Shown piece by piece: positions 11,751-62,261 of a stretch of DNA of 64,000 bases. The number at the start of each line of letters is the position of its first letter. Position 1 is the first letter of the stretch. The stretch is taken from positions 36,520 through 100,519 of IMG/VR virus record IMGVR_UViG_3300049844_000277. One strand, given 5' to 3'. The stretch is from a virus. Both the position numbers and the translations under genes were made by a program. The notes under the pieces were generated by a model that worked only from the letters and a program-made list of their open reading frames with translations, did not search any database and had not been told where the DNA came from.

Positions 11751-12380
11751 TTAAGTACCGGCTCCACGGGAACCTCCTTCACAGAACATCATTCGCCGTA
11801 GGTCATCAGCATGCTGCTGGTCAGTAAGGACCATTTGCTCCAGCATGACCTTAAGCGACAAATTATCTCCGGCCATGTCTGACAGATGTCGTAACTCTTC
11901 AATCAATTGCTTCTCAGTTTGTAGAAGAGTCATGAAAATCTGGTGGAGGTCACTCATGTTCGGGATGACACCTACCTTAGGAATAGGTTCTCCGCCTAAC
12001 GCCGTAATCTTCATTGCGAGATGGTAGGCGTCCATCCGCTCTTCTTTGATGTGCTCTTTAAAGTGGTCGTAGATAACATCTCTAAAGTGCGCACGAATAC
12101 GATCGCCATAATTCATATACATGAAGATGATGGTATATTTGTAGCGCAGCAACTTATTACACTGAGCCACTACCTTATCCTGGGCAACCGCGAAGAATCC
12201 TTCCTCGGCCGATACAGCAAGAGGATGAGCACCAGCAGATGCTGTGGCAAGCGGAGGCATGGCGAACATCTCCTCCGTGTGCGGGGATGACTCCATTGTG
12301 TCCGCCATTGGACTGCTAGGAACTGGAAGACTCGAGCCACTCTCAGCCATGGAAGTACCCACTTTGTAGCGCTGCGTCAT
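11751..12380 (-). CDS. Dps/ferritin-like four-helix-bundle protein with ~70-aa N-terminal extension
   Basis: ...YMNYGDRIRAHFRDVIYDHFKEHIKEERMDAYHLAMKITALGGEPIP... and ...LLQTEKQLIEELRHLSDMAGDNLSLKVMLEQMVLTDQQHADDL... follow the Dps pattern (F..lH..f.e....d.iAERi.aLGG.P ... gD..t...l). Confidence 0.55.
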   Translation of the reverse strand: MTQRYKVGTSMAESGSSLPVPSSPMADTMESSPHTEEMFAMPPLATASAGAHPLAVSAEEGFFAVAQDKVVAQCNKLLRYKYTIIFMYMNYGDRIRAHFRDVIYDHFKEHIKEERMDAYHLAMKITALGGEPIPKVGVIPNMSDLHQIFMTLLQTEKQLIEELRHLSDMAGDNLSLKVMLEQMVLTDQQHADDLRRMMFCEGGSRGAGT

Positions 12381-20887: not shown

Positions 20888-21053
20888 GTTCGTAAGTATA
20901 GACCCTTATTTTGGTATCAGTATATGAGTCACATGCTGTGGCTCATAGAGGGAAGTACCATCACCACCACCAGAGGGGAAGTACAGTGAAAGTGGCAAGG
21001 GTACAGAAGAGGGGTGTAGTAAAAGTAACAACGAGAAAGGAAGTGAGGGCGAG

Positions 21054-22362: not shown

Positions 22363-25300
22363 TTATACAGGCTGATTTTGTTGCGCCATTTGCGCCTTCG
22401 CCTGCTGTCCTTGTTGGTTCTGAAGATCTTCCAGGCGTTGAATGACAACCGCATGCATCACAGCGTCTTCCTTACTTAAGCTATCCAACTGTGAACGCCT
22501 AGAACCAACATCCAGCCCCATGAGCTGCTGCACTATCTGGTCAGCCTGCGCGATGACCGCCTGCTGGTCGTAGTTGAGCCCAGGAGTACCTTGAGCCTGT
22601 AGCTGAACCTGCTGGGACAAGTTATTCTGTAGTTTTCGTAGCTCATTCTGGACGCGCTGATTGTGCCGCGCCTCATCAAGAGTTTCTTGTAGACGCTTCT
22701 CTCGTTCTGCGTCCAAATCAATGTCGAGTCGCTCTAGTATGGTAGTCATTGAGACGTACGAGGGACCCGCTTGCCCGGTAGCCATGCTGAGCAGTAATTG
22801 TTTAGACTCAGTGTCATCGACCATCTTCAAAGGCGTAAGTTTCGCCTCTATCTTCTCCCAGCCAAGATACCGGGACATCTGGTCGCTGTACCACTGTAGT
22901 AGGTCATTCATATCATCCGCGTGCCCTTGCGTTTGATTCTGAATGAGCCGGAGAGTTGCCTCCATGCCTGCTTTAGTTAGTCCACCGTAGAGGAACTCCT
23001 GCGGAATACCTAACGCAGCCATAATGCTCTTCTCAGCTTCTTGAAGCTCACCGAGCGTTAACATCGCCCGTCCATCGCCACCAAGATTGGATACACCAAG
23101 AGCTACTGGTGCCATCATTATGTGTAAGGGGTCACGTCGCCAGCGACGAATATTTTGTTTCATTTCATCTTGCCAACGCGCAAGAGAAATCATTTGCGTA
23201 AAATCTTGCTGTCCGTTTTGTGCGGGATGCAAGATACGCATTGGCACGACGTGCTCCAGCGCGATCGAATTTTTAGTAGCCCCACCCGCGATACAAAACG
23301 TGGAATCCTCCGCGATCTTGAAGTCAATGTATTGTTCCTCTTCCGACTCCTCTACCACGCTCACTCTCGCCGCAAAATAATCTTTCCAGAAAAAGCCACT
23401 CTTGCCGATGGTAATCTCTTCCGCATCCTCCCAATTCCATAGCGCGTAAAGCCGCTCTTGGGACGCACCGCTAACCCGTACGTGGTAACTCGGTCCGTTT
23501 GGGGTAATAACACGCCCATCAGCAAGCGCGTGAATCGGGGTAATGTGCTCACGAATCGTCGCAATACATCCTACGTGAAGGAGCATACGGTAAACATCAT
23601 ACGCAAGGCCCGCACTGGAGGTGGCGAGAGTATCTTGCCCTTCCCGCGTGTGACCATCCGCCTCCCAGAGACCTTTCAAGAATGCGAGCTTTACAGAATC
23701 CGGCGCATGAAATACTTCCGAAGGAACGCGCTTAACGCGCGCGGTTCCCGGAACCATGCCCTTGATGAGAGCCTTCACAATCACATCACACAAGGTAACC
23801 ATGCTACAGTTACCTCTCTGATTGTATCCACCGCACTCCAAGCCAAACTCTCGCCGAATTGCTTCCCGGAGGGGCTCTTCCGTCTTACTGCCCATCGCAA
23901 TCATAACGGTACGCTGGTTACAGGAACCATTTCCAACGTAATGCCCGAGGATATACGCGAAGTCCTCTGTCATCGGGCGCGTCGCGGGGAGGCGTTTTGG
24001 AACGGACCCTTCTTTCAGCTTCCTACGCGCAATCTTCCCAGGGACTCCCTTCACATGCTCACCGGCGCTCTCCGCCTCAAACGCCTGCGCGGAGGGTAAT
24101 GACATCGCGCTGTAAACGTAATTCTCGGTGTTCGCGAAACCGGTGTACTTAGCAACATCTACCTGCTGCGGCTCCGACGGAATTGTCCGGGGGTAGAGGA
24201 TATAATCACCCTTCTCGAACTGTTCCGCGGGACACATCACCTCTTCGTACAAATGCGGATTCTGAAGAATCTCCGACGACGTCTGCTTGTCTTTCGTATC
24301 CGACCGACGTGCGTCGCTTGTCCGTCGAAGGGTAAGGATGGGATGGTGCGGGGAAAATACCCCGCTGAGATGCCGAAGCCCCGAAAGCGTAATACGGCAT
24401 CCGATTTCATCATCCTTCGCATCCCGATACCACTTCTGCTCGACTGGACGCCACCGCCCGAGGTGTGTTCTCACCAAGTCGCCAACACGTACATCATCCG
24501 CGGGCACGAGACCGGTAGACGTCTCAATGAGTGTATCGAGACTGACGCACTCGTTCGCCTTCCTTAGCGTCATGGTGTAGAGGAAGAGCTTGATTGTCGA
24601 CGCAAGCGGAGGAAATCCCCACTGCTGGTCAATACCCGAAGGACTTGGAACCTTGATATGAAAAAGAGCGTCCTTCTCAAAACGAAACGTCTTGTTGTCT
24701 CGAATGTTTTCCAAGAACTCCATAGGCATCGAATTAATAAGATGCTTTGACCCCGATTTAACTTGGTCCTTAACGTCCTGCGGGATGTTATAGTAGTATA
24801 CAGATTGTCCCGTAATCGGATTGTAATCTATATCCATTAGCTTGGGATCCCACCGAATAATATGGACCCGGCTAGCAGCTAGAATCTTACGGTCAACGAC
24901 TGTACCACGCACATCTCGCTTGCAATGCAGGCAGTGGTAGGTGAAAGCCAGCGATTTCAGCTCAAACTTGTAATCAGTGTGCTGAATAGCAACGAGTTGC
25001 TGACAACTAGGACACTTCAGACTACGAACGAACGGCTTATAAATTGATGTAAAATGATTGCCATATATGTGCTTATCGAGCGACGCCATGAGAAGCGCAC
25101 TCTTAATCTTCAAAGTTTTTTCAAAAAGACGGCGATAGTTGCGCCGGAGTGCTTCATTCGATGTTCCGTACTCGAGGTCAGTTACGACGAGCTCTCCAAA
25201 TTTACGCAGAGCCGCGTAAACATGTGCACTATTATACATCAAATATTCGCACCATTTAAAGAGATCTTTTAGCTTTCTTGGTACAAAACCCGTTAGGAAG

Positions 25301-25374
25301 TCATGTGCAGGGTTTGGGTGTGAAGCCGCCCGGTCAAAAACGGACATTGTATCAGTGTTAGGAAGGTCAGCCAT
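22363..25374 (-). CDS. Portal-like protein interrupted by an intein
   Basis: The extein is about 576 aa. N-terminal Zn-ribbon-like CPSCQQ...CLHCKR. The central part reads ...EKSIMAALGIPQEFLYGG.... The long Gln-rich helical C-terminus is reminiscent of podovirus portal barrels. It is the first gene of the large minus-strand block. The assignment is tentative. Confidence 0.45.
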   Translation of the reverse strand: MADLPNTDTMSVFDRAASHPNPAHDFLTGFVPRKLKDLFKWCEYLMYNSAHVYAALRKFGELVVTDLEYGTSNEALRRNYRRLFEKTLKIKSALLMASLDKHIYGNHFTSIYKPFVRSLKCPSCQQLVAIQHTDYKFELKSLAFTYHCLHCKRDVRGTVVDRKILAASRVHIIRWDPKLMDIDYNPITGQSVYYYNIPQDVKDQVKSGSKHLINSMPMEFLENIRDNKTFRFEKDALFHIKVPSPSGIDQQWGFPPLASTIKLFLYTMTLRKANECVSLDTLIETSTGLVPADDVRVGDLVRTHLGRWRPVEQKWYRDAKDDEIGCRITLSGLRHLSGVFSPHHPILTLRRTSDARRSDTKDKQTSSEILQNPHLYEEVMCPAEQFEKGDYILYPRTIPSEPQQVDVAKYTGFANTENYVYSAMSLPSAQAFEAESAGEHVKGVPGKIARRKLKEGSVPKRLPATRPMTEDFAYILGHYVGNGSCNQRTVMIAMGSKTEEPLREAIRREFGLECGGYNQRGNCSMVTLCDVIVKALIKGMVPGTARVKRVPSEVFHAPDSVKLAFLKGLWEADGHTREGQDTLATSSAGLAYDVYRMLLHVGCIATIREHITPIHALADGRVITPNGPSYHVRVSGASQERLYALWNWEDAEEITIGKSGFFWKDYFAARVSVVEESEEEQYIDFKIAEDSTFCIAGGATKNSIALEHVVPMRILHPAQNGQQDFTQMISLARWQDEMKQNIRRWRRDPLHIMMAPVALGVSNLGGDGRAMLTLGELQEAEKSIMAALGIPQEFLYGGLTKAGMEATLRLIQNQTQGHADDMNDLLQWYSDQMSRYLGWEKIEAKLTPLKMVDDTESKQLLLSMATGQAGPSYVSMTTILERLDIDLDAEREKRLQETLDEARHNQRVQNELRKLQNNLSQQVQLQAQGTPGLNYDQQAVIAQADQIVQQLMGLDVGSRRSQLDSLSKEDAVMHAVVIQRLEDLQNQQGQQAKAQMAQQNQPV
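23269..24549 (-). mobile_element. Intein 4 (427 aa, LAGLIDADG type) in the portal-like gene
   Basis: Junctions are TLRKANE|CVSLDTLIETSTGLV... and ...STFCIAGGATKN|SIALEHVVP. Dodecapeptide motifs are ILGHYVGNGS and LKGLWEADGH. Confidence 0.8.
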
Positions 25375-25430
25375 TTGCGGCCCTCAGTCGTTCTTGTTTA
25401 CGCATCCTCAGTATAGCCTTTGGAGAAGGC

Positions 25431-31259: not shown

Positions 31260-32093
31260 CTACTCAAGAAAAACATCTTGAGACGTTTCTACTTGATTTG
31301 CCAATAAGTATGTCTTGATTTGCGCGAGAGTGTCCTTCTTAATCTGCCGGACACGTTCAGAAGATAAATCTACTCTTCTGGAAATCTGCCGGAGATTTTT
31401 AGGCTCTTCTCTCGCGCCGTAATACGCCAGGACAATATATTTATCTCGTTCGCGTAGAGATAAGTTATCTAACGCACGACGTAACATAGTAAGGCCGTAC
31501 GTATTCACTAAATCACGTTCTAAGCTCACATCGCAGTGTCCAGCTACGTCAATAGCGCCAACAGCATCCAACGTAACGTGCGGCTGCTCTACATCAACAC
31601 CGCCACCACTCTTACGTTGCGCTCTTAACGCTTTCTGCTTATGGGCAGGGACACGAATAATTCCTTGACTATCTAACTCCTCTAGTATTTTCTCGCGAAC
31701 CCACCACGCAGCGTATGTAAGAAACTTAGTATTGCGTGAGGTATCAAAACGATCCGCCGCGACTAGAAGTCCTACGTTACCGGCGGATATCAGTGACGTC
31801 AATAGTTCGTTGTCGAACTTTGGTCCCTTAGTGCGATAAGCATATTCTTTCGCTACTTTCACAACAAAGCGAAGGGCTCCCGAAATAAGTCGATCACGCG
31901 CTTTAAAGTTTCGCGGAGTATTACACCTAGGACATCGGGTAGCTGAAGATCCCAAGCTATACGAAGACCTGCACGCAGAACAAGTGCGGTAGGCCTTTAC
32001 TAGATCGCGTTCCTCTCGTTGAGGAATGAATTCATTACCACGTAAATCAGCGAAATAAGCCGAGACTACACGGTCATTGTCCATTGGGTTCAT
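31260..32093 (-). CDS. Sigma-70-family RNA polymerase sigma factor with N-terminal Zn-ribbon insertion
   Basis: Region 2: LISAGNVGLLVAADRFDTSRNTKFLTYAAWWVREKI. Region 3-like: IRVPAHKQKALR. Region 4: LSLRERDKYIVLAYYG...NLRQISRRVDLSSERVRQIKKDTLAQIK. N-terminal CSACRS...CPRCNT. Confidence 0.85.
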   Translation of the reverse strand: MNPMDNDRVVSAYFADLRGNEFIPQREERDLVKAYRTCSACRSSYSLGSSATRCPRCNTPRNFKARDRLISGALRFVVKVAKEYAYRTKGPKFDNELLTSLISAGNVGLLVAADRFDTSRNTKFLTYAAWWVREKILEELDSQGIIRVPAHKQKALRAQRKSGGGVDVEQPHVTLDAVGAIDVAGHCDVSLERDLVNTYGLTMLRRALDNLSLRERDKYIVLAYYGAREEPKNLRQISRRVDLSSERVRQIKKDTLAQIKTYLLANQVETSQDVFLE

Positions 32094-32206
32094 TTTTAAA
32101 CGATCCTCGTTTTAGTGCTGGAAATAGTCAGAAGCTGGGAGTAAGGTGCCCGAGCAATCAACGCAACGAAACCAACAACTAATCCACAAATCAAGAAAGC
32201 ATAACA

Positions 32207-34128: not shown

Positions 34129-34167
34129 CCGCACGAGCTACTCGTGCCCACAACCCGAGGAGCTCTC

Positions 34168-37100
34168 ATGGAGAAGCCCGCAGAAATCTGCAGCGGATGT
34201 CCTCGAGAAATCGAGACAGAGACCCATCCCTACGGTTATGTTGAATCGTGGATTGATTCAAACGCCGAACTCATCATCATAGCGGAAGCTCCTGTCTGCG
34301 ATCGCCACGGTAACGTTCCTAGCTCTTTCGACGATGACAGCGGTAAAATCATTCGAACCGCCGTATCCGAGCTACGTAACTTACCTTCGCACAGTAAGCT
34401 AGCGGTCTCGTATACGTACGCAGTACTCTGTACAAGCAACCAGGGCGACAAAGACCCCGAAAAAGCCGTACTGCAACGGTGCCGTACGCTGCTCCAAGCT
34501 GACTTACGTCGCGCAAACAAGAACGCCGTCCTGCTGGTAATGGGTATGTCTGCCCTTCGCGCACTAGAAATAAAAGCCGCGAAGTTGAAGGACATGCAGG
34601 GGCGATTACTCCAAAAGCAGAAAATTGGAGAAGGTGATGACGCTCCGATATTCGATGTCGTCGTAACCGTCTCGACAAAACAGTTGTTCGCGATGCCGGG
34701 AATCTACACGACGTTCGTAGCGGACCTGCGACGAGCTGCGGACGCTGCGAGCGCAGGTGGATTAACACACGTTACCCCACTCGAAAAACTAACCGAAAAA
34801 TACGTAATCCCGAAAACAATCGAAGAAGTACGCCAAATCTGTCGCGAAATACTGAATTATCAAGAAGGTAAAGTATCTGCAGATAACTGGCCTATCTCTG
34901 TAGACACCGAGACAAACACCAAGTTTCCACACCGAGAAAACTTGAAAGTATTGGCGGTGTCCTTCGCATGGGCGGAGGGTAAAGCTACTGCAATTCCATT
35001 AGAGCACCCCACTACACCCTACGCGTACCAAGACGCGATACCGTACGTACGCGAAGTCTTAGCGAGCAAGAAGCCGAAGTTCCTTCATAATGCTAAGTTC
35101 GACCTTAAAGTCTTCATGAAAGCGGGCTGGCCGATTAACGGGTTCGCTTGGGATAGCATGCTAGGGGAACATGCTCTCGAAGAAGATAAAAAGGGACAGT
35201 ACGGATTAAAGCAGTTGACCCGTACTTTCTTCCCGGAATTCGCGACATACGCCGACTCTCTTCAAGAAATGCTCACGCACGAAGAGGGCGACTCGCAGCT
35301 CGACAACCTGAGGAAAGCGCCAAAAGCTTCAACTTCGAAAGATGGGGGATTTGAAAGTATCCCACTTCCCACGCTATTGCTTTATGCGGCAGTCGATGCA
35401 GATATGACACGGCGGCTAGTGTTACTGCAGGAAAAAAGAATTACCGACGAGCAGAACAGAGTAATCGTAGAAACGAATATAACGAAGAGAGAGCAGGCGC
35501 TGGCGATTTCGGCGAGGAAGAAAATACGGCTGAGAATTGCGCCGCTACATAGTGAGACGGAGATGTTGAAGAAGTACATGGTGCTCTACCCCGTCCCAGA
35601 ACTCTGTTCCGCTGATAAGCCGGTAAGACAACTAGTACTGAACAACGTATTCCCCGTTACCCCAGCTCTCGCGAGAATGGAGTTTAAGGGCATACGGATA
35701 GACAGACCGTACCTAACTACGTTGCGTGAAGCGTTGGGAAAAGTCGTCACAGAAACCGCTGCAGAGCTACAGGATATGGCGGGCAGAGAGATAACTCTCA
35801 ATAGTCCGGCAGAGATAGCTGAAATCCTGTTCAACAGCGGGTTTATACATCCAACAACTCACGCCCCCACGACTTATCCCCTCACAGGCATCGGTAAGAC
35901 AAAAACGGGACAGATACAAACCACCGAGAAAGTGATGCAGTACTTGGTGGCGAAGTATCAGTGCCCCTTTGCAGCTAAAAAACTAATCTACGCCAAGGCA
36001 TATAAAGCGAAAAATACGTTCTGTCAGAATGTGTGGGATCTCTCGGAGCTCGACGGGTATCTACACACGAACTACAACCAGCACGGCACAAATTCGGGTA
36101 GACTGTCCTGTGTCGCGGGAGAAACCGTACTAGATACTAATTACGGAAAAATCGAGATACAGAATCTCGATCTGGAGAAGATGCCGGGGATTACCATCCA
36201 GACCCACGAACTCCGCGAACAACCGATTCTACGTAAAATAGAAAAAGGCATTGAAGAAATGTTCGAGGTCGAACTCGAAGACGGGCGCACCATCACCGTG
36301 ACTAAAAAACATCGCTTCTTGACGCCGACGGGGTGGAAACGACTCGAGGAACTGTCAGAAAATGCCGAAATACTCTGCGCCGCCTCCGTGGGTAGTGGAC
36401 CAAATATGCGACTCGTTACAACCCGGATAAAAAGCATACGTCCCGTAGGTCCTAAGAAAGTCTGGGACCTCACAGTAGCGGTCGATCACTCTTACATCGC
36501 CCACGGATTTGTTAACAAAAATTCCAACGATGAAAACATGCAAAACATCCCCAAGAAATTGGCGGGTGTTAACATTAAGAAAGTGTTCCTCCCGGACGAT
36601 GATTCGTATGTCTTCGTCAACGCTGATGCGAAGGGTGCCGAAGTACGAATCCTAACCGCCTACTGCCGAGACCAAGCGCTCATACAATCGCTCAACGCGG
36701 GGCAGGACACGCATTGTTTCATCGCGTCCAAGATTGTTGAAATCGTACGTCAGAGTCCTGGTGCAACGGCGGTTCTCGGAAGCATGAATCTAAGCGATGA
36801 GTATCCTCTGACGTACGAAGACTTCGCGGCTAGAGACAAGCTAAAAGAAACCAATAGTAAGTACGGGGCGATGCTCGACAAATTCAGAACCGCTGTCAAA
36901 CGCGTAGTGTTCGGTATTCTGTACGGCGCCGGTCCTCAGAAAATTGCGGAAACTATTGGTATCAGTCTAGAGCAAGCACAACAGCTCATTCACACTCTGT
37001 TCGCTTTGTTTCCGTCCATCAAGACGTACATGGCGCAGACAAAGTGGGAACTACAACAATTTAATTTAGTCGAAACGTTCTTCGGTAGACGCCGTAGATT

Positions 37101-37527
37101 TAGTGTATCGGGAGCGCCGAAGTATCAAATAGGGAGAGCTGAACGTCAGACAGTTAATTTTAAAATCCAAAGCACAAGCTCTGATATCGTAATGGGACGA
37201 TTACTAGCAATCGAAGAACCTCTCAAAGATTTGGGAGGTAGACTTCTATTGACAGTGCACGACAGCCTTGGGTTTCAAATCAAGAAAAAATATATCCGAC
37301 AGCTACCTGATTTCATTTATACGTATTTGGAGAAGGGTGCAGCAGACGCCCATCCATGGCTCCCAGTCGCATTTAAATGGGACTACGAAGTTGGGTCATC
37401 ATACGGCGAACTCAAATCACTGGAATCCTACCTTGCCAACACGAAAATAGAGGAATACTCGAACGATGCCTACGTCGCCGAGGCTTTCACAGAAGAAGAC
37501 GCAAGAACCTCCCTCTCCGAACCCTGA
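34168..37527 (+). CDS. polA: Family-A DNA polymerase with N-terminal UDG-family-4-like domain and 3'-5' exonuclease domain, interrupted by a mini-intein
   Basis: UDG-like: LIIIAEAPVCDRHGNVPSSFDDDSGKII. Exo I/II/III: SVDTETN, HNAKFDLKVF, YAAVDADMT. Pol motif A: VFVNADAKGAEVRIL; motif B: RTAVKRVVFGILYGAG; motif C: LTVHDSLGF. ATG 34168 follows GAGGAG; the track ORF begins at GTG 34144. Confidence 0.9.
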   Translation: MEKPAEICSGCPREIETETHPYGYVESWIDSNAELIIIAEAPVCDRHGNVPSSFDDDSGKIIRTAVSELRNLPSHSKLAVSYTYAVLCTSNQGDKDPEKAVLQRCRTLLQADLRRANKNAVLLVMGMSALRALEIKAAKLKDMQGRLLQKQKIGEGDDAPIFDVVVTVSTKQLFAMPGIYTTFVADLRRAADAASAGGLTHVTPLEKLTEKYVIPKTIEEVRQICREILNYQEGKVSADNWPISVDTETNTKFPHRENLKVLAVSFAWAEGKATAIPLEHPTTPYAYQDAIPYVREVLASKKPKFLHNAKFDLKVFMKAGWPINGFAWDSMLGEHALEEDKKGQYGLKQLTRTFFPEFATYADSLQEMLTHEEGDSQLDNLRKAPKASTSKDGGFESIPLPTLLLYAAVDADMTRRLVLLQEKRITDEQNRVIVETNITKREQALAISARKKIRLRIAPLHSETEMLKKYMVLYPVPELCSADKPVRQLVLNNVFPVTPALARMEFKGIRIDRPYLTTLREALGKVVTETAAELQDMAGREITLNSPAEIAEILFNSGFIHPTTHAPTTYPLTGIGKTKTGQIQTTEKVMQYLVAKYQCPFAAKKLIYAKAYKAKNTFCQNVWDLSELDGYLHTNYNQHGTNSGRLSCVAGETVLDTNYGKIEIQNLDLEKMPGITIQTHELREQPILRKIEKGIEEMFEVELEDGRTITVTKKHRFLTPTGWKRLEELSENAEILCAASVGSGPNMRLVTTRIKSIRPVGPKKVWDLTVAVDHSYIAHGFVNKNSNDENMQNIPKKLAGVNIKKVFLPDDDSYVFVNADAKGAEVRILTAYCRDQALIQSLNAGQDTHCFIASKIVEIVRQSPGATAVLGSMNLSDEYPLTYEDFAARDKLKETNSKYGAMLDKFRTAVKRVVFGILYGAGPQKIAETIGISLEQAQQLIHTLFALFPSIKTYMAQTKWELQQFNLVETFFGRRRRFSVSGAPKYQIGRAERQTVNFKIQSTSSDIVMGRLLAIEEPLKDLGGRLLLTVHDSLGFQIKKKYIRQLPDFIYTYLEKGAADAHPWLPVAFKWDYEVGSSYGELKSLESYLANTKIEEYSNDAYVAEAFTEEDARTSLSEP
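36109..36522 (+). mobile_element. Intein 5 (138-aa mini-intein, no endonuclease domain) in DNA polymerase
   Basis: Junctions are TNSGRLS|CVAGETVLDTNYGKI... and ...HSYIAHGFVNKN|SNDENMQNIPK. The spliced sequence restores the PolA (T/S)GRLSS....QNIP motif. Confidence 0.8.
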
Positions 37528-41212: not shown

Positions 41213-42496
41213 ATGAGCAATACCGCGCAAAACAGCGTAGCCACCACAGAAAGTTATTGGGATAAGTACGGGATTCCTAGAGTAACACTTCACGAAGCCC
41301 TTGCACAAATTGAACTCTCCATTATCTACAATCAAACAAGAGGAGTTTTTTGTTTAATCTCAGAAGCTGGAGAAGGAAAATCGCAAGGAATTCACCAACT
41401 AGCTCGAAAACACCGAAGGCGTGTGGTGGACATCCGAACATCGCAATTTTCTATGATTGGCGCAGGTGTTCCCCAGAGAGCAGACGAAACAGGGCACTTC
41501 AAAATCGCCATCCCAAATGATTACCCGAAACCGGGAGAAAAGTGCCTACTAGTATTCGATGAAATCAACCAAGGGCAACAACACGCCGTAGCGCTATTTT
41601 TCAAACTATTGGAAGATCGAGGAATCTACGACTACACACTCCCCAACGATTGCATCATCGTTGCTTTGATGAACCCCTCGACCGCGAACTACTCAGTCAC
41701 TAAAATTGAAACTAATTCAGCTTTTAACAGACGACTACAAAAACTCTACGTATACAACACTTTCTCCGATTGGAAGAAGCACGCACAAACAAACGACTTC
41801 CACTACACAGATGGGCTTCAGAAGCCCTGCCATCCGATGGTTGTACGGTTGCTCACAGCTACTCCCGCCATGCTGTATACCGCCAAGGATAGAGACGGGA
41901 ATAAGCAGTATGCCTGTCCCGCAACCTGGCAGACCGTATCTCTGTCGCTCTACAACCTCGCCGATGCGGGCGTGGACCTCACAAGTGAGCGAGCGGAGAA
42001 TCGAATCGCCGCGTCTATCAATATCGTCAACGCGCGGATGCTCGTGGAGTTCATCAAGAACAACGAGATACTCATCGGCCCGGAAGAAGTTCTGTTCAAG
42101 TACAAGCCGAAGAGCAAGCTTCGAGAGCGAGTGCTCGAAATACAAAAGGAGCCCGGCGGTACGTACACGCAGCTCGTAGAAGATGTCGCGCAATACATCT
42201 TCCGCGAGAGACCGGAAGCCGAAGTCATCGCGCCCAACCTCGTTCAGTTCTGGCACGATATGCCGGTCGAACAAGCGCAGCCGTTCTACCAAATGCTAGA
42301 TGCTGCCTGTCAGGCACACGGCGGTATCAAGGAGCCCAAGAACGTTCAGTACATGCAGGCGCTCACCACCGCGAATCGTCAGTATCCGCTGTGGAAAGAA
42401 ATCAACGACAGAATCAACCGCATTCACGACGAGGTCGAGAAGAAGATTCATGGGCGAGGGGTCGGGAAAGACCCCATGCTCAGTGCTCAAATGTAG
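41213..42496 (+). CDS. AAA (MoxR/dynein-related-like) ATPase
   Basis: Walker A reads LISEAGEGKSQG. Walker B reads CLLVFDEINQG. Also VALMNPS...FNRRL. Confidence 0.65.
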   Translation: MSNTAQNSVATTESYWDKYGIPRVTLHEALAQIELSIIYNQTRGVFCLISEAGEGKSQGIHQLARKHRRRVVDIRTSQFSMIGAGVPQRADETGHFKIAIPNDYPKPGEKCLLVFDEINQGQQHAVALFFKLLEDRGIYDYTLPNDCIIVALMNPSTANYSVTKIETNSAFNRRLQKLYVYNTFSDWKKHAQTNDFHYTDGLQKPCHPMVVRLLTATPAMLYTAKDRDGNKQYACPATWQTVSLSLYNLADAGVDLTSERAENRIAASINIVNARMLVEFIKNNEILIGPEEVLFKYKPKSKLRERVLEIQKEPGGTYTQLVEDVAQYIFRERPEAEVIAPNLVQFWHDMPVEQAQPFYQMLDAACQAHGGIKEPKNVQYMQALTTANRQYPLWKEINDRINRIHDEVEKKIHGRGVGKDPMLSAQM

Positions 42497-43223
42497 CGAG
42501 CTCTCGACGCAGATGCTTGGTTCTATCTTCGACGTAACGCCAAGCAACAGCTAACCGGCCAAGCTGCGCCCCCAAGGCGGAAATATCGAACGTACGTGCT
42601 TTTCGTTCGAGCTCCTCCTTGGGGAGCGCTTGCCAAGCCGCTTCGGTTTCTTTTTGAAGCACTAAGGAATCCGCGCTCAATTTACTCGTCAACTCTTCCA
42701 ACGCGAATCCCAAGCCGACGGGTGGAAGTACTAGTCCCTCGTCGAAGAGAGATACACCGACGTACGCAGCGACGCTCTCGTCATATTCAGGTCGAGTAGA
42801 TTCACCATCAGTCAGCGCAAACAAGAGCTCCGCCTCAAAAGCGGCCCACGCCATCTGCGCTGAATCACACTTCGGCACGTCGTTCGGACTTACCATCTCC
42901 TGCGTCAAGGCGTGCGTCGTTGCGCCGAATACGCGGTAATCCCAGTAAAAGCTGGGAGTCAGCGCGAGCGCAACACCCGCCATTAATTTATCTCGATTCG
43001 AGGTGTGGATGGGTAGTTCGTGCCATAGCGTTTCAGGCTCGTAAGCCGTGAAATGTGGACCCAGTAAATAACGGGCTGATACAAGTAAGGCTGTTGCAGA
43101 CGTATCTGCGTTTTGTAGCAACTCTTTAGCGGTCTGCTCGTGTACGGACGTAGGGATGCGGAAATATGCCGCATAGGCTTCCTTTACTGCGAGACGTTGT
43201 AGCTCAGAAAGCGTCATCGACAA
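42480..43223 (-). CDS. Hypothetical protein (247 aa)
   Basis: Long ORF, translationally coupled to the upstream gene. No motif recognised. Confidence 0.5.
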   Translation of the reverse strand: MSMTLSELQRLAVKEAYAAYFRIPTSVHEQTAKELLQNADTSATALLVSARYLLGPHFTAYEPETLWHELPIHTSNRDKLMAGVALALTPSFYWDYRVFGATTHALTQEMVSPNDVPKCDSAQMAWAAFEAELLFALTDGESTRPEYDESVAAYVGVSLFDEGLVLPPVGLGFALEELTSKLSADSLVLQKETEAAWQALPKEELERKARTFDISALGAQLGRLAVAWRYVEDRTKHLRRELATFEH

Positions 43224-44239
43224 TGCGCCCTCAACTGAAGCTTCAAATCCAGAGGAAGCGTATCGACTACAACAGCAAGCTTGGATTGGTCAACTTCACC
43301 CCCGGGTGCTACCTCATCTCGAAGTTCCTTGCCGCCTAAATCTTCCCAGAAAGAAGCGGGAAGCGCTGCTATCTTCTTCATCGGAACAAACGTACCACCC
43401 AAATCAACAGAATGGGCCGCCTGCTTTTCCGTATTGAACACCGTCCTCACGGCATCCGGAAGATTTCGGTCGTAGTGCTTATCTAAACCTGACTGCTCGT
43501 CGAGCTCCGCGAGAACCGACGCAAACTTCATCAAGCCTTTTCGATCAAAAATTTCTACAGGCTTCTGCTTCAAGCCGTCCGCCAAAGTTTGATACGCTAG
43601 CTTAAATACCTTCGCATCTTCGGGAAGCTTGTTTGCACGGGCCTCAACCCAATCCCGCGCGGTCTTCGTATTCGAGACTACGAGTCCCGCGAGTTGTAGG
43701 ACCTCAGGGCGGAGCTCGACGTTAAGCTCATCTGCTCGCTTCACCAACTCCGCGCAGGCCGAGACACGGTGCTCCATATCCAACTTGGGCAAGGACTCTA
43801 CCAGTTCTTCTTGTGCCCGCTTACACTGCTCAGGATTCGTCACACGAAACAGCCTAAGAGTTGGTAAAAGATATTGATTATCCTCCGAAGCTACCTTCGC
43901 CGTCTCCTCTTGGAAGATAGATTCAGGAACGGCGTATACCTCTAACGCCTGCGCGATATTCGCGCGTACCTCCTCAGGAAGCTCCGAAGCTACCTTTGAG
44001 TACGCGTAGCTCAGCATGGCGTGCTCAGGTGTATGAAGAGGAAATTTTCGCTCCGACGGCCAAGCAAAGGCCGAATCGGGAAGCGCATCAGCTTCACTCG
44101 GCTCTATCGTCGCCTGCTTAACAAACTCCTCCATAGCAGGCATACGGTTGATCTGCCGGTACAAGGTACCAAATGCGGTATCGGAAAATTGGTCAATCGC
44201 TGACATTGTTGACCTCTGCAAGAGAAGACGTCGCGTCAA
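43214..44239 (-). CDS. Hypothetical protein (341 aa)
   Basis: Long ORF. No motif recognised. Confidence 0.5.
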   Translation of the reverse strand: MTRRLLLQRSTMSAIDQFSDTAFGTLYRQINRMPAMEEFVKQATIEPSEADALPDSAFAWPSERKFPLHTPEHAMLSYAYSKVASELPEEVRANIAQALEVYAVPESIFQEETAKVASEDNQYLLPTLRLFRVTNPEQCKRAQEELVESLPKLDMEHRVSACAELVKRADELNVELRPEVLQLAGLVVSNTKTARDWVEARANKLPEDAKVFKLAYQTLADGLKQKPVEIFDRKGLMKFASVLAELDEQSGLDKHYDRNLPDAVRTVFNTEKQAAHSVDLGGTFVPMKKIAALPASFWEDLGGKELRDEVAPGGEVDQSKLAVVVDTLPLDLKLQLRAHCR

Positions 44240-44251
44240 GAGTATAGGCGG

Positions 44252-45946
44252 ATGTTGGGAAGTGAGCCAGCATACTTCTTAAAGGATATCCAAAAAATGT
44301 CAAACCAGCCTGAACAAGAAAATGCACTCCAGAAATCGATGGTTTTCTGGGTGTCCCGCCGAGGAGCCTCTAACTACTGGGCCTCGGTCGTGAATGGAAT
44401 GAATAAGAGGTTCTCTAACGACGAAGGAACAATGTCGGTGCAGCTCACAGAGAACTGGAAATATATCCTCACCTGCCATCTTCCAGCGTTCGAATCGTGG
44501 TCGCCGAGAATGCGACTACTTGCTCTCGTTCACGAATGCGCTCACGTAGTTCTTCAGCACATTCCCCGGCTGTTCAAGATGTTGGCCAATTGTACAGACC
44601 CGTTCGTACGCACAGCCATCACATCGACGTTCAACTTCGCAGCAGACTTCGCGGCGAATGACGCAATCGTTCGACTTGAAGACGGATTCACAGAAGCGCA
44701 CAAAGCCTTCATGCACGTCAGTCCAGACGGAAAGCCGATTCCTCTCTCCAAAGAAGAAGAGGAGAAACTTCCCGGTGAATGGCCATTTCTTTTGCCAGAA
44801 GAATTTGGACTACCTCGTGGAAAGACAATGGAAGAGTACTTCGTGCTCATCCTCAAGGACCTCCCGAAGTTCAAACAACACGTCGAGGAGATGATGAAAA
44901 ACCTCGAACGTATTCTGAGTGAAATGGGGGAAGACTCCGAAGGAGAAGGAGAGGGAGAATCAGAGGATGGAAGTGGCGGCCAGGGAAAATCTCCCTCCCG
45001 TCGAAACATTCCACCTAAAGGGATTCCCGGCATTCCCGACGAAATCGTCAAGCACGCTCTCAACTCACCAGAGACCTTCGAGATGTTGCAGAAGGCCTTT
45101 GATAAGATTTCCAGTAAAGCACACAAGCAGTGGAACGAAAAAGCAAAGGAGATGACACCTGAGGAAGCAATCTCTGCGGGCAATAAGCTCAAGAAGCACG
45201 CGCAGACGATGGTCAGGGCCGCGAATGACCGCGTAAAGAGAGACCGCGGATTCATGCCCGGCGGAGTCCAGAAGATAATTGACGCGCTGATGGAGCCGGA
45301 CCAGATTCCCTGGGATTCAATTCTTCGAGACATCATTCACGGAGCAATAAGCGCTCGCGTTCAAGAGGAGATGGTCTCTCCGAATCTGTCTCTCATCAAC
45401 GAAGACTACTTGGAGCCGTGGCCTGGGCAAACATTGGAATTTGGCTTCAACATCACCTGGATGACCGATACCTCTGGTTCGATGGGTGATAGTGAATACG
45501 CGCGGGCGTGTAACTGCATGAACTCGCTGCTTGCGCAGAACAAGTTCGTATCCGTCACATACTGCGAGTGTGACGCCATCATGCAAAAGGAGGTGAAAGT
45601 CACAAACATCGAACCGCTCACAGAGGAATACTTGAGCGAGCTCCGTACACGCCGAGGATATGGAGGAACTGTCTATACGCCGTTCTTCAAGCGCGTAATG
45701 GGTGCGGATGAACCTCGGGATTGGATTGATGGCGCACCACGACTAGAGGATGCGCATCCCAAACCGGACTTAATGGTAATCTGCACGGATGGTGGCGTTC
45801 GTCTCATGGGAGAATGCTTCCCGAAGTATCGGCCAGAATGTCCCATCATCTGGTTGTTGATGCCAGGCTGCCATGCTACGACCGGAATGGATGATGTCGC
45901 GCCGGACCGGTTGATTCAGATGTATAAAATGCGGGAGGAGGAGTAG
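44252..45946 (+). CDS. HExxH metallopeptidase-like (DUF2201_N-type) plus VWA-like domain protein
   Basis: LALVHECAHVVLQH (HExxH). MIDAS-like WMTDTSGSMGD. GYGGTVYTPFF and LMVICTDGG. An acidic linker lies between the domains. Alternative start at ATG 44297. Confidence 0.65.
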   Translation: MLGSEPAYFLKDIQKMSNQPEQENALQKSMVFWVSRRGASNYWASVVNGMNKRFSNDEGTMSVQLTENWKYILTCHLPAFESWSPRMRLLALVHECAHVVLQHIPRLFKMLANCTDPFVRTAITSTFNFAADFAANDAIVRLEDGFTEAHKAFMHVSPDGKPIPLSKEEEEKLPGEWPFLLPEEFGLPRGKTMEEYFVLILKDLPKFKQHVEEMMKNLERILSEMGEDSEGEGEGESEDGSGGQGKSPSRRNIPPKGIPGIPDEIVKHALNSPETFEMLQKAFDKISSKAHKQWNEKAKEMTPEEAISAGNKLKKHAQTMVRAANDRVKRDRGFMPGGVQKIIDALMEPDQIPWDSILRDIIHGAISARVQEEMVSPNLSLINEDYLEPWPGQTLEFGFNITWMTDTSGSMGDSEYARACNCMNSLLAQNKFVSVTYCECDAIMQKEVKVTNIEPLTEEYLSELRTRRGYGGTVYTPFFKRVMGADEPRDWIDGAPRLEDAHPKPDLMVICTDGGVRLMGECFPKYRPECPIIWLLMPGCHATTGMDDVAPDRLIQMYKMREEE

Positions 45947-46728: not shown

Positions 46729-47331
46729 ATGGACCTCTACTGTCTTCGTGTTCGTAGGAACATCGCTGGACGTAAATTTCCCTTCGATAGAGTGTATCTC
46801 GCGAAATACGGGGATCACGTTATATTCAAAAGATTATTCAGGTATGCCTTCATCCTTCCCGTTGAAGGCGTACTAAAGGAAACGCTGTACTGTCTCCCCA
46901 TTGAAGACAGCATGACGCACGCATTCGACAGAGTAGAAACGCCTGAGAAAATTCCAGATGTAGAGTGGAAGACGCTCATCGACTCGACGGACTGGGTACT
47001 CGCGGTACCGATTCTATCGAAGTACGTGACCGCTAACATGCCGAGATATATTATTGCCAAGTCCACGGTGCCCCGAAGAGACAAGAAAAACTCTAACGCG
47101 TGCGCAAACCCGTTTCCAAACATGACGTACTTGCAGACACCCGAGCAAAACATTCGGCCAATATGTGTCGCATGTCCGAACTTTATCCAGCATCAGAACG
47201 GTCACTGCGAACTTGGAGATAAGCTCTGCTACGACTCTCTTTCCCTGGGAATCCGAAATCACTTTGAAGAAGGCATGATGGTTCCTCCTGCCCCGGAAAA
47301 AGAACAAGTGACTGAGGAGGGGAACGACTAA
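46729..47331 (+). CDS. Hypothetical Cys-containing protein, first gene of the RT operon
   Basis: ATG at 46729 (MDLYCLRVRR...) lies just after the terminator; the track ORF start 46630 would read through the hairpin. Contains CVACPNFIQHQNGHCELGDKLC. TAATG overlap with the RT start. Confidence 0.5.
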   Translation: MDLYCLRVRRNIAGRKFPFDRVYLAKYGDHVIFKRLFRYAFILPVEGVLKETLYCLPIEDSMTHAFDRVETPEKIPDVEWKTLIDSTDWVLAVPILSKYVTANMPRYIIAKSTVPRRDKKNSNACANPFPNMTYLQTPEQNIRPICVACPNFIQHQNGHCELGDKLCYDSLSLGIRNHFEEGMMVPPAPEKEQVTEEGND

Positions 47332-48467
47332 TGCCTGTCTACAAACAAAATTTCCTTGAGCGAATTGAAGTACGCGAGCCACTCATCAAAGGCGTACCCC
47401 TTATCGTCGATGACTGGAGTCTGGCATTCCAGCTAGGTTTTACGGGTAAGACCGCGTGGTACATCATCCATGAACGCGCCAGTATGTACCGGGAGTTCAT
47501 GCTGAAAAAGAAGTCTGGGGGTCTCCGTAGAACGTTTGATCCAACTAACCTCCTGCGCATTTTCCAGAAACAACTACGCGCACGCATTCTGTTCCCGCTC
47601 GTATCTCGCCTAGGTCCGCACGTAGCCGCGTATCAGGTCGGTAAGAGCACGCTTGATGCGGCAAACTGGCACCTGCGCGAGTGTAAAATCTGCGACGACA
47701 CGACCCGTCCCGGCACGAGTCCTGTGAAACATGAGTGTCCTCGACGGGGTGTGAAGTTCAAAATGGATTTGAAGGATTTCTTTCTATCGACTCGTCGGTC
47801 CTGGATACGACAGTATTTCCACGAAGTCGTCGGATACAATCACTACGTCTCGTCGATTCTGGGGCACCTACTGACGACGAGTTATAAAGATGAGCGGAGA
47901 AAAGACAGGAACGGCGTTCCGCCAGGCGCATTAACAGCTGGCGATATTTGTAATCTCATCTGTGATTGGAAGATAGATCAACCGCTTATGGCGGCACTAC
48001 CCACAGGCTGGAAGTACACACGGTACGCCGATGACTTGTATTTCTCGTACGACGCACCCCTTCCATCAAAAGAAGTAAACAAGATAATCCGACTAGCCTC
48101 GGACACCATCACCGGCTCCGGTTACCGGGTAAATTGGAAAAAGCTCCAAGTGCAACACTGGAGCCGGCCCCAGCGAGTACTAGGTATCAATATCAACAGA
48201 AAACTAAACATCCCTGCGACTGAGTACCGTCGAATGCACATGATTCTGTATAAAGCAAAGAAGCATGGATTCCAGGCGCAACTTACGTGGGCAAAGAAAG
48301 CCGATGTTCCGGAACTTCACGCCTGGATAACCGGCAAACTGAATTACTACGCGCGATTCGCACCAGATAAAACCAATAAACTACAACGGCTTTATCAAGA
48401 AGCGAAGGACGCGAATCCAAGCGAAGAGGCCGCGGTGTTCAACTTTGGAACCGGTGCAAACCCATGA
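47331..48467 (+). CDS. Reverse transcriptase, retron/Abi-like
   Basis: YREFMLKKKSGGLRRTFDP (RT1/2), AAYQVGKSTLDAANWH (NAxxH-like), KMDLKDFFLST (RT3), GVPPGALTAGDICN (RT4), YTRYADDLYFSY (YADD, RT5), RVLGININ (RT7, VTG-like). There is a Cys-containing ~25-aa insertion between NAxxH and RT3. GAGGAGG RBS. Confidence 0.8.
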   Translation: MPVYKQNFLERIEVREPLIKGVPLIVDDWSLAFQLGFTGKTAWYIIHERASMYREFMLKKKSGGLRRTFDPTNLLRIFQKQLRARILFPLVSRLGPHVAAYQVGKSTLDAANWHLRECKICDDTTRPGTSPVKHECPRRGVKFKMDLKDFFLSTRRSWIRQYFHEVVGYNHYVSSILGHLLTTSYKDERRKDRNGVPPGALTAGDICNLICDWKIDQPLMAALPTGWKYTRYADDLYFSYDAPLPSKEVNKIIRLASDTITGSGYRVNWKKLQVQHWSRPQRVLGININRKLNIPATEYRRMHMILYKAKKHGFQAQLTWAKKADVPELHAWITGKLNYYARFAPDKTNKLQRLYQEAKDANPSEEAAVFNFGTGANP

Positions 48468-50945: not shown

Positions 50946-51311
50946 TTACGGCACCGTAACGGCGGTAGTGCCAATCACGAACGAGGTCGCGATTATATCA
51001 TACTCTTGCGCCAAGCTCGTCAAGCGTGACTCGATGGTCGCCGCAAAGTCGATAGCCTGATTCGCCGCAGTATACAACTGGGTAACAGTGTTTTGTCGGT
51101 AAAAGGGAATGGCGGGCGTTGCTACGTCGGGATACGTCTGCACGTCAAGCACGGTGGCTATATGGTCATAGAGGCCGTCGCTGTACCGGTACACAAACAC
51201 AGCGTCATCGATATTAACCGTACTGGTGACCGTAGCCGCAACGCTGTATTGCGCCGGTGGACCAGTAATCGTCGACTGAACCAGATTGTACGTGATGCTA
51301 GTAGCGGCCAT
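50946..51311 (-). CDS. Hypothetical protein (121 aa)
   Basis: ATG at 51311 (MAATSITYNLV...) follows GGGAG. The track ORF starts further upstream at 51395. Confidence 0.45.
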   Translation of the reverse strand: MAATSITYNLVQSTITGPPAQYSVAATVTSTVNIDDAVFVYRYSDGLYDHIATVLDVQTYPDVATPAIPFYRQNTVTQLYTAANQAIDFAATIESRLTSLAQEYDIIATSFVIGTTAVTVP

Positions 51312-51427
51312 GGTGCTCCCAGTATAGGCCGCACATCTATCCATGTCTAAACAACTTCGAATCGGCCTTTGGGATGTGCAGAAGACCATCCCCATTCTCT
51401 ATTTCTACCGTGTAAACCCCCGAACTG

Positions 51428-55788: not shown

Positions 55789-56125
55789 CTGAAAGGGGCG
55801 TTCAGCCGCAAATGTCCGTAATTACTAAAACTCGAAGAAAAACCTGAACAGGCTGAATGCCCTGACATGGTGCTTCTTATATAAGCATGGAGTAACAGGG
55901 GTATTACTGACCCACCCTGGGTCATTTTTGACGGACACTGGGTATAAAGTTCAGAAACATATTCAGGGTATTCAGGTATTCAGTTATCCAATAAAATCAA
56001 GTACTTAGAACGAAAAATGGCTGAATACCCCCTGAATATCCCCCCCTATGGCACCAGAATTGCTTGTGCGGTCAAAATCGAACTTTCTGGGCTATTTTCT
56101 GGGCTATTATTTTGTTCAGTATTCC
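55789..56125. repeat. Iteron-like array built on a TTCAG/CTGAA core
   Basis: Three direct (A/G)TATTCAG units lie at 55959-55983. Two inverted units, CTGAATAC and CTGAATAT, lie at 56021-56039 across an AT-rich spacer. CTGAACAGG-CTGAATGCC-CTGACATGG lies at 55844-55870, and further TTCAG/CTGAA copies lie at 55789, 55801, 55950 and 56115. Confidence 0.6.
56085..56108 (+). repeat. Perfect tandem duplication TTCTGGGCTATT x2
   Basis: Read directly at 56085-56096 and 56097-56108. Confidence 0.9.
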
Positions 56126-61396: not shown

Positions 61397-61561
61397 TTCT
61401 TAGTTTAGTTCATTTTGAGTAGGCTTAATTCCTTGGCGACTGTTACGGAATATCCTGAAATTCTTGTCCGGTACCCGCGACGTTGACAACTTCATGCCGC
61501 TGCCCGGTTAGGTTTGTGATGGATAGTCGTACCATGTAGAGAGTATAGCTATACTCCCTCC

Positions 61562-62122: not shown

Positions 62123-62183
62123 TAGTCTCGACTTCACTAAACCGTCTGCTTCACCAGCGCGGTAGACCTTGGGGTTTAGTGAA

Positions 62184-62256
62184 CTCCCCGAGTAGGACTC
62201 GAACCTACGACCTAGCGATTAACAGTCGCTCGCTCCACCAGCTGAGCTATCGGGGA
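62184..62256 (-). tRNA. tRNA-Asn (anticodon GTT)
   Basis: The reverse complement folds as TCCCCGA-TA-GCTC-AGCTGGTG-GAGC-G-AGCGA-CTGTTAA-TCGCT-AGGTC-GTAGG-TTCGAGT-CCTAC-TCGGGGA-G. The 7/4/5/5-bp stems are perfect, the T-loop is TTCGAGT, and CCA is not encoded. Confidence 0.9.
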
Positions 62257-62261
62257 AGATG

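Follow-up and report, generated by a model that had tools for sequence, protein, structure and literature searches.

A sigma-70-family factor with a predicted zinc ribbon, encoded near a fused beta-beta′ RNA polymerase in a lineage of uncultured phages

The sigma gene, its product and the ribbon

The 64,000-nucleotide stretch analysed here (hereafter the window), positions 36,520 to 100,519 of the IMG/VR virus record IMGVR_UViG_3300049844_000277, carries a gene for a protein of the sigma-70 family together with genes for a bacterial-type RNA polymerase (RNAP) that has a fusion of beta with beta′ (Table 1). The window is phage DNA: it contains a terminase gene, and its relatives all sit on contigs, either metagenomic or viral ones from IMG/VR, the longest of which has 196 kb. 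The sigma open reading frame (ORF), the only sigma-like one in the window, begins at an ATG, which is the first start codon past the upstream stop and is preceded by a Shine-Dalgarno sequence (GAGGA). Since the N-terminal 77 amino acids (aa) are conserved, we consider the 277-aa form to be the correct one. The public gene call of the Joint Genome Institute for an identical protein (P0042) starts at an internal Met and is 200 aa long, so that region 1.2 and the ribbon are lost.

The initial annotation of the locus, made from the nucleotide letters alone, had recognised a sigma-70-family factor, and every peptide that it quoted is found in the translation. Three curated hidden Markov models (HMMs) agree with this assignment: Sigma70_r2 (Pfam PF04542) scores 36.5 bits over aa 74-143 for a gathering cut-off of 24, Sigma70_r4 (PF04545) 36.2 bits over aa 212-260 for a cut-off of 24.1, and the NCBIfam sigma-70 superfamily model TIGR02937 70.5 bits for a cut-off of 42.9. 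The protein also matches PHROG 351, ‘RNA polymerase sigma factor’ (1e-27). Its closest solved structures are RpoS, Mycobacterium tuberculosis SigB and primary SigA/RpoD, aligned over regions 2.1-3.0 and 4.2, and a Foldseek search with its AlphaFold model (predicted local distance difference test, pLDDT, of 78) returned sigma chains of holoenzyme structures only. Regions 2 and 4 are thus both detected above cut-off, and the protein groups with RpoS, SigB and SigA and not with non-sigma helix-turn-helix (HTH) regulators.

The regions are not all equally well preserved. Region 1.2 has three invariant residues (Y13, E28 and Y35) and is modelled as helices (aa 3-17 and 25-36). In region 2.3, the melting motif TYAAWW, which aligns to TYATWW of RpoS, is invariant at T126, Y127, A128, A129 and W131 and at least 90% conserved at W130. 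Regions 2, 3 and 4 had all been described as clearly present; this stands for regions 2 and 4, but region 3 is not recognisable beyond helix 3.0 (IIRVPAHKQKALRAQ), the only part of it that aligns to solved sigmas. Pfam Sigma70_r3 (PF04539) has no match in the protein, AlphaFold predicts a single helix (aa 150-161) and, after it, disorder (aa 164-183, pLDDT <50), and helix 3.0 is closer to region 4 than in RpoS, by about 35 aa.

As for the sigma group, the presence of both region 1.2 and helix 3.0 excludes the extracytoplasmic function (ECF) sigmas of group 4, while the lack of a complete sigma-3 domain (regions 3.0-3.2), of which only a vestige is left, excludes the typical architecture of groups 1 and 2. 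The best partial models are those of RpoS, cyanobacterial RpoD, RpoH and SigB, all far under their equivalog cut-offs, and none of them is ECF-specific. With the two RpoS models, TIGR02394 and NF004207, the scores are 94 and 86.7 bits for cut-offs of 378.7 and 394, respectively, and the first of these is reason enough not to call the protein an RpoS orthologue. We also rejected assignment to any other named group, because its closest relatives without a ribbon are orphans too: they are RpoS/RpoH/RpoD-like and fall far short of every equivalog cut-off. From its sequence, the factor seems best described as a divergent, RpoS-like, non-ECF sigma. A further candidate feature, the sequence LISAGN in region 2.2, was considered as the signature of an altered core interface and discarded: its ‘SA’ is also present in 28 ribbon-less representatives, as well as in many cellular sigmas of the PVC group.

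The CSAC...CPRC ribbon that the initial annotation had placed in the N-terminal part is borne out. It has the form CxxC-X12-CxxC; its four cysteines (C38, C41, C54 and C57) are conserved at 99-100% among 118 homologues with identities as low as 46%, and AlphaFold models the segment with confidence, as short strands (pLDDT 88-93). Generic zinc-ribbon HMMs stayed sub-threshold on it (DZR gave 14.4 bits for a cut-off of 27.3, E = 0.044, and the others were weaker). Judging from conservation and model the ribbon is real, and it may bind metal. When aa 37-60 are removed in silico, the alignment to solved sigmas gains about 20 residues N-terminally (aa 11-23) and its score goes from 65 to 70.8 bits. 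Because the excised sequence aligns across the excision point into region 1.2, the ribbon is a clean insertion in the connector between regions 1.2 and 2.1, which we take to be the site of the non-conserved region (NCR) of primary sigmas. The nearest cellular sigmas have a canonical region 1.2, a short loop and region 2.1, with no ribbon, and none of the 21 unrelated phage sigmas examined carries one. In the clade to which the window belongs, defined by the synteny described below, sigma orthologues possess one ribbon (∼277 aa, the subclade of the window), two ribbons at the same site (315-351 aa) or none, and ribbons were seen nowhere outside this clade. A module present in 0, 1 or 2 copies is accessory and lineage-specific; through it, the factor would probably touch the phage core at one more point, or else promoter DNA close to the spacer. 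The literature was searched for a zinc-ribbon sigma and for a sigma of the present lineage; nothing was found and, as far as the searched literature shows, a zinc ribbon at the NCR site is an undescribed sigma architecture.

Table 1. Position of the sigma gene, the RNAP genes and the candidate promoter elements in the window
Feature	Position	Strand	Remarks
Sigma-70-family gene	31260..32093	-	277 aa; HMMs, alignment to solved sigmas, AlphaFold model, Foldseek
Region 1.2 (aa 8-36: VVSAYFADLRGNEFIPQREERDLVKAYRT)	31986..32072	-	Alignment after ribbon excision; invariant residues; modelled helices
Zn-ribbon insertion (aa 37-60: CSAC-X12-CPRC)	31914..31985	-	Cys conservation; model; excision alignment
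Region 2 (2.1-2.4, aa 61-143), with 7-aa insert in 2.1/2.2 loop	31665..31913	-	PF04542; alignment to RpoS, SigB and SigA
Helix 3.0 (aa 144-161)	31611..31664	-	Alignment to RpoS; K154 at the position of sigma-S K173
Short, poorly conserved linker in place of regions 3.1/3.2 (aa 162-183)	31545..31610	-	pLDDT; no Pfam r3 match
Region 4 HTH (aa 212-265)	31299..31460	-	PF04545 over aa 212-260; alignment to region 4.2 of RpoS and SigB
Divergent intergenic region sigma/orf347	32094..32206	.	Sigma promoter region and Shine-Dalgarno; no CTATACT
Fused beta-beta′ (N-terminal two-thirds of beta′), 2836 aa	12377..20887	-	InPase insert, three inteins, no beta′ zinc-binding domain
beta′ C-terminal part (Rpb1 domain 5), 599 aa	9086..10885	-	Domain match
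Candidate sigma-S-type extended -10, TCTATACTTA	20893..20902	-	7 nt upstream of RNAP ATG; leaderless geometry
Second conserved element, TATACTGATACCAA	20911..20924	-	24 nt upstream of the -10-like hexamer
CTATACT	25410..25416	-	Before 1003-aa intein-containing gene; 35-nt leader and Shine-Dalgarno
CTATACT	44241..44247	-	Head of the 43214-44239 (-) operon
CTATACT	51321..51327	-	9 nt upstream of an in-frame ATG (51311) in gene 50946-51395 (-)
Perfect 16-bp palindrome, GAGTATAGCTATACTC	61541..61556	.	Two back-to-back CTATACT, each 6 nt before an ATG

Synteny and the phage RNA polymerase

Viral contigs were scanned for the sigma, which yielded 58 loci, and the surroundings were examined by tblastn with the proteins of the window. 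The block PolA-orf347-[sigma antisense]-ParB-SNF2-580-aa gene-fused beta/beta′ is kept in 40 loci, even where the sigmas are only 27% identical; 21 unrelated phage sigmas do not have it around them. The peculiar orientation of the sigma gene, earlier noted in the window, is part of this arrangement: it is antisense to all its neighbours in the 40 related loci as well. The RNAP gene is found in each of the 19 syntenic loci long enough to reach its position, and in 5 more, without a counter-example, and such strict co-occurrence favours a functional coupling of sigma and RNAP. In a set of 185,579 species-representative genomes, this family of sigmas has no member. Most of the best matches in cells (25-35% identity) belong to the PVC group (Planctomycetota, Verrucomicrobiota, Omnitrophota), the others being from Latescibacterota, Gemmatimonadota and spirochaete metagenome-assembled genomes. 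Deposited phage genomes gave no DNA match, and protein identity with them is at most 31%.

The statement that the sigma accompanies a phage RNAP core was right in that beta and beta′ are both encoded, and needed refinement in that they are fused into a single intein-laden gene, about 10 kb from the sigma gene. This polymerase is of bacterial type (matches in the PDB at 4e-54 for beta and 2e-32 for beta′); in relatives the protein has 1605-1775 aa and no inteins, and the fusion of beta with beta′ is shared by all members. Once an intein is removed, at a junction confirmed by the intein-free relatives, beta′ aligns continuously to residues 174-464 of bacterial beta′, clamp helices included (E = 2.6e-37). 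Among the genes near that of the RNAP, Pfam and PHROGs brought to light nothing else that could act as initiation factor. The N-terminal zinc-binding domain (ZBD) of beta′ is missing clade-wide (loci L077, L079 and L080): there is no Cys between GLFD and HIEL, the motifs that we assume to border the domain in bacterial beta′, and by our estimate this stretch is shorter in the phage by ∼30 aa. In the fused protein of the window the site lies at aa ∼1530-1550. The idea that the sigma ribbon stands in for this domain is unsupported as a necessity, because a comparison across the ribbon forms, for which two contigs were extended by exact match, showed the ZBD to be absent with zero-, one- and two-ribbon sigmas alike.

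Five inteins were found in the 64 kb. Three are in the fused RNAP (∼aa 930-1279, 1745-2122 and 2251-2749), two of them with LAGLIDADG; a mini-intein is in PolA (34144-37527, +) and one more in the 1003-aa gene (22363-25374, -). The counterparts in relatives have no inteins (1605 aa for RNAP, 974 aa for PolA and 578 aa for the third protein), and they are shorter by amounts that agree with the inferred intein lengths. The catalytic loop of the polymerase reads NADYDG-N|C(intein)...VVW-D-TFQIHVPV (aa 2244-2251 and 2749-2757), and the intein that interrupts it does not possess the usual terminal HN. The beta moiety also contains an ‘InPase’ domain (PF18823, a predicted inorganic pyrophosphatase, aa 590-709), which is kept in all relatives examined; a pyrophosphatase inside an RNA polymerase is unusual. 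Directly downstream of the fused gene, with a 4-nucleotide (nt) overlap, lies a gene for a ferritin-like protein (PF00210, 4e-11; 11751-12380, -).

The gene content of the window further includes a GpA-type terminase, the intein-bearing PolA, ParB, an SNF2 helicase, PD-(D/E)XK nucleases and a VapE primase-helicase. There is a single tRNA gene, tRNA-Asn (GTT), at 62183-62257 (-). A 378-aa ORF (47331-48467, +) matches a PHROG annotated ‘polymerase’ (2.6e-32) and, weakly, a reverse-transcriptase PHROG. An ATPase (PHROG 1297; 41213-42496, +) and a DUF2201 metallopeptidase/von Willebrand factor A (VWA) protein (44252-45946, +) form a pair that resembles the MoxR-vWA chaperone systems of jumbo phages (PMC7824862). 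Iteron-like direct and inverted repeats (CTGAATAC/GGTATTCAG), present in 4 copies at 55926-56063 and in none in coding DNA, lie between divergent genes, a short way downstream of the gene for the VapE primase-helicase; an origin of replication and an array of operators are both conceivable.

Candidate promoters and the factor that may read them

The initial annotation had proposed to look for -35/-10-like motifs shared by the upstream regions of phage operons. Canonical promoters (TTGACA-N17-TATAAT) are not enriched in the window (10 versus 16 ± 3.7), and none is found in the key intergenic regions; what stands before the RNAP gene is CTATACT. An unbiased k-mer comparison of intergenic and coding DNA placed CTATACT among the top 7-mers, without significance after multiple-test correction, and revealed no other enriched motif. 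Five of its seven copies are in the ∼6% of the window that is intergenic, and each of these points towards a gene. One-mismatch variants of GNCTATACT are at chance level (36 versus 34) and were discarded, only the exact element being informative.

The relatives, the loci of which bear L numbers, support this motif independently. In the subclade with one ribbon, the RNAP gene is preceded by cTATACT, 6-7 nt and an ATG (the N-terminus, M-x-LTP, is conserved) in all 11 distinct genomes, and the DNA on both flanks shows no conservation. Genomes of the two-ribbon clade have TATACT (TATAAT in L020) and then a leader of 24-28 nt with a GGAGG Shine-Dalgarno sequence, and the copy of CTATACT that precedes the 580-aa gene likewise has a 21-35-nt leader with a Shine-Dalgarno. 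The distance to the ATG is therefore short and fixed where there is no Shine-Dalgarno and variable where there is one, which is how a -10 element should behave, and from this spacing a leaderless RNAP mRNA is predicted in the subclade of the window. The copy before the 1003-aa gene has orthologous counterparts in L005, L007, L011 and L016. The palindromic copy faces ATG codons at 61562 (+, 186-aa ORF) and 61535 (-, 30-aa ORF); it would be a very compact divergent pair of leaderless promoters, or an operator.

Two more properties set the motif apart. TATACT is depleted about 5-fold in deep coding DNA, and a C at -13 precedes 23 of the 36 copies that are not deep-coding versus 1 of the 9 that are (p = 0.006); the deep-coding definition is used in this control, longest-ORF gene calls being such that they engulf true promoter copies. 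Upstream of CTATACT there is no conserved -35-like element. Before the RNAP gene, however, a second conserved element (consensus TA(T/C)ACT(G/A)ATACCAA) occupies a -35-like position in 8 of the 11 one-ribbon genomes, with sites orthologous to that of the window in L001 and L009-L016, and is unlike TTGACA; in L005, L007 and L017 it is replaced by CCTTATACC, farther upstream. As to the sigma gene itself, its upstream region is devoid of CTATACT in the subclade of the window, and in L013, L014 and L016 it has a TATACT with A or G at -13.

Which sigma could read such a sequence? The extended -10 consensus of sigma-S is TCTATACTTAA, and K173, in helix 3.0, contacts the sigma-S-specific C at -13 (PMC3367168). 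The RNAP promoter of the window, TCTATACTTAc, agrees with this consensus at 10 of 11 positions. In the phage factor, K154 is aligned with the RpoS lysine (HKQK versus HVVK) and is invariant in the family, while SigA and SigB have a Glu there. This correspondence is circumstantial but specific, and we infer from it that CTATACT promoters are read by the phage sigma and not by a primary sigma of the host.

It is also possible, although we doubt it, that these are early promoters read by a primary or stationary-phase sigma of the host, the phage sigma and core being devoted to another, middle or late, class. TATACT shares 5 of its 6 bases with TATAAT, including A(-11) and T(-7), and L020 has TATAAT itself; early expression of the RNAP gene by the host holoenzyme would follow the usual logic of phages, and the TATACT with A or G at -13 before the sigma genes of L013, L014 and L016 may be taken in the same sense. 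But the C at -13 is invariant in the 11 RNAP promoters of the one-ribbon genomes, which have no TG extension or -35, and it fits a helix 3.0 bearing a lysine, not a primary sigma bearing a Glu. Moreover, the k-mer scan found no other enriched motif that could represent a second class.

Possible role and comparison with known systems

With modest confidence, we think that the gene probably encodes the promoter-specificity (sigma) subunit of the phage lineage's own transcription system. The factor would recognise promoters like those of sigma-S that do without a -35, C(-13)-TATACT; K154 would be the reader of C(-13), melting of the -10 would fall to the conserved Y/W/W residues, and these promoters would drive the fused beta-beta′ gene and a handful of other operons. 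The sigma would come first, its gene having another promoter, which the host reads; the absence of CTATACT upstream of its gene in the subclade of the window, and the A or G at -13 in L013, L014 and L016, are compatible with such host-first expression. It would then direct transcription of the phage RNAP operon with the host core, which is needed at this stage because the sigma-S-like promoter of the RNAP gene has to be read before any phage core exists. Finally, it would serve as initiation factor of the phage core, docking via its sigma-2 domain on the beta′ clamp helices. An own holoenzyme and redirection of the host core, the two roles envisaged from the start, are inseparable from sequence, and both may apply.

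Several observations weigh against this reading. The number of CTATACT copies in the window is small (7, for 4.4 expected overall), and the analysis of the motif was started post hoc. Any primary sigma of the host, too, would have a good -10 in TATACT, one relative has TATAAT, and in the two-ribbon genomes C(-13) is not kept throughout (it is A or T in L022 and L027); the palindromic copy, as said, could be an operator. On the side of the polymerase, no homologue of alpha or omega was recognised in the window with Pfam and PHROGs, and the spliced catalytic motif is either NADYDGD, which is active, or NADYDGN, depending on the intein boundary. As for the ribbon, the existence of ribbon-less orthologues in the same synteny indicates that it is dispensable for the basic function.

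Another explanation would be that the sigma binds the host core only, as T4 gp55, SPO1 gp28 and the sigmas of RNAP-less jumbo phages do, and that the phage RNAP uses another initiation factor, or none. Its sigma-2 and sigma-4 domains are close to those of cellular sigmas, phage sigmas are described in reviews as redirectors of the host core (PMC7598289, PMC7824862), and, again, the promoter of the RNAP gene must be read before the phage core is there. We nevertheless hold pure redirection to be unlikely: sigma and RNAP co-occur without exception, in a fixed synteny maintained over deep divergence, the clamp helices are retained in the phage beta′, and there is no other recognised candidate for the initiation factor near the RNAP gene. 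The encoded RNAP also sets the window apart from phages without their own polymerase, to which host-redirecting sigmas are ascribed.

Less probable still is that CTATACT is mainly an operator, bound by a DNA-binding regulator of the phage, and not a -10. The perfect palindrome and the second TATAC-like element 24 nt upstream of the RNAP copy could be understood in that way, and there is a precedent in FliZ, a repressor that recognises sigma-S-like -10 sequences (PMC3367168). Most copies, though, are single and oriented with the downstream gene, and their distance to the ATG (6-7 nt when leaderless, variable with a Shine-Dalgarno) is what is expected of a promoter. Lastly, that the sigma is a mere decoy, sequestering the host core or competing with a host sigma, could be suggested by its vestigial region 3 but is hardly credible, since TYAAWW, helix 3.0 and the recognition helix of region 4.2 (SERVRQI), none of which a decoy needs, are kept under selection.

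The reading of the sigma as the specificity subunit of the phage's own transcription can be extended, in a form that is speculative and that we would not bet on, to a self-contained minimal system. It would consist of the fused beta-beta′ and the beta′ C-terminal piece, without alpha, omega or ZBD, and of an RpoS-like ribbon sigma; it would read C(-13)-TATACT promoters that have no -35, produce leaderless mRNAs, operate first with the host core and then with the phage core, and use the ribbon as a clade-specific docking module.

How does the factor compare with those already known? RpoS (sigma-S, a group 2 sigma of Proteobacteria) is its best match in NCBIfam and in the PDB. The two proteins, of 277 and ∼330 aa, share regions 1.2, 2 and 4, helix 3.0 and a Lys at the position of K173, and the candidate promoters match the sigma-S consensus, without a -35. 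In contrast to RpoS, the phage sigma has a zinc ribbon between regions 1.2 and 2.1 and reduced regions 3.1/3.2, is encoded by a phage and is absent from cellular genomes. The RpoD-like sigmas of cyanophages and of jumbo phages without an RNAP (the ‘group 2’ jumbo phages in Iyer et al. 2021) belong to the same sigma-70 family, with 24-31% identity, but they are thought to redirect the host core (PMC7824862, PMC7598289), whereas the present sigma is always found beside phage beta-beta′.

The insert can be likened to the sigma NCR, which is also a lineage-specific insertion at the same topological site (region 1.2/2.1). The NCR is a large helical domain, unlike the four-Cys ribbon of 24 aa that is duplicated in a sister clade. 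TFB/TFIIB offer another parallel: as general initiation factors for a multisubunit RNAP, they too contain a zinc ribbon (PMC6372665). This is an analogy only, not homology, and TFB has its ribbon at the N-terminus, docked at the RNA-exit/dock region, while the phage ribbon is embedded beside sigma-2.

Two settings with phage-encoded multisubunit polymerases invite comparison. One is provided by the mReC phages (Weinheimer and Aylward 2020), Caudovirales with deeply branching beta/beta′ (PMC7481178); like the present lineage, they are uncultured large phages with a cellular-type beta and beta′. In the main text of that paper the word ‘sigma’ does not occur and, in the part of the supplement available to us, its only match is the Pfam label Anti-sigma_N, with no Sigma70 or PF04542. 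The terminases typed there, as far as the accessible material goes, are PF03237, with no PF05876, and the large terminase of the window is PF05876. Because of this difference in terminase family we rejected membership of mReC, within the limits of that material, and the present phage probably represents a distinct lineage, in which beta and beta′ are fused. The other setting is the non-virion RNAP of AR9 and phiKZ, also a phage multisubunit enzyme, which needs a phage specificity subunit (gp226/gp68). There, the polymerases are split and highly divergent and the specificity subunit does not resemble sigma in sequence (PMC7598289), whereas here both core and factor are of bacterial type.

Reviews separate phages that have a multisubunit RNAP without a sigma from phages that have a sigma without an RNAP (PMC7824862, PMC7598289). 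The present lineage stands outside this dichotomy, since it has both together, in fixed synteny and both recognisably of bacterial type. The way in which phage-encoded cellular-type RNAPs find promoters is now directly testable, with a concrete factor, a candidate promoter of 10 bp, a residue predicted to set specificity (K154) and naturally occurring variants with 0, 1 and 2 ribbons at hand. A core of two or three polypeptides, a single sigma and a short -35-independent promoter would, in addition, make an attractive orthogonal expression system.

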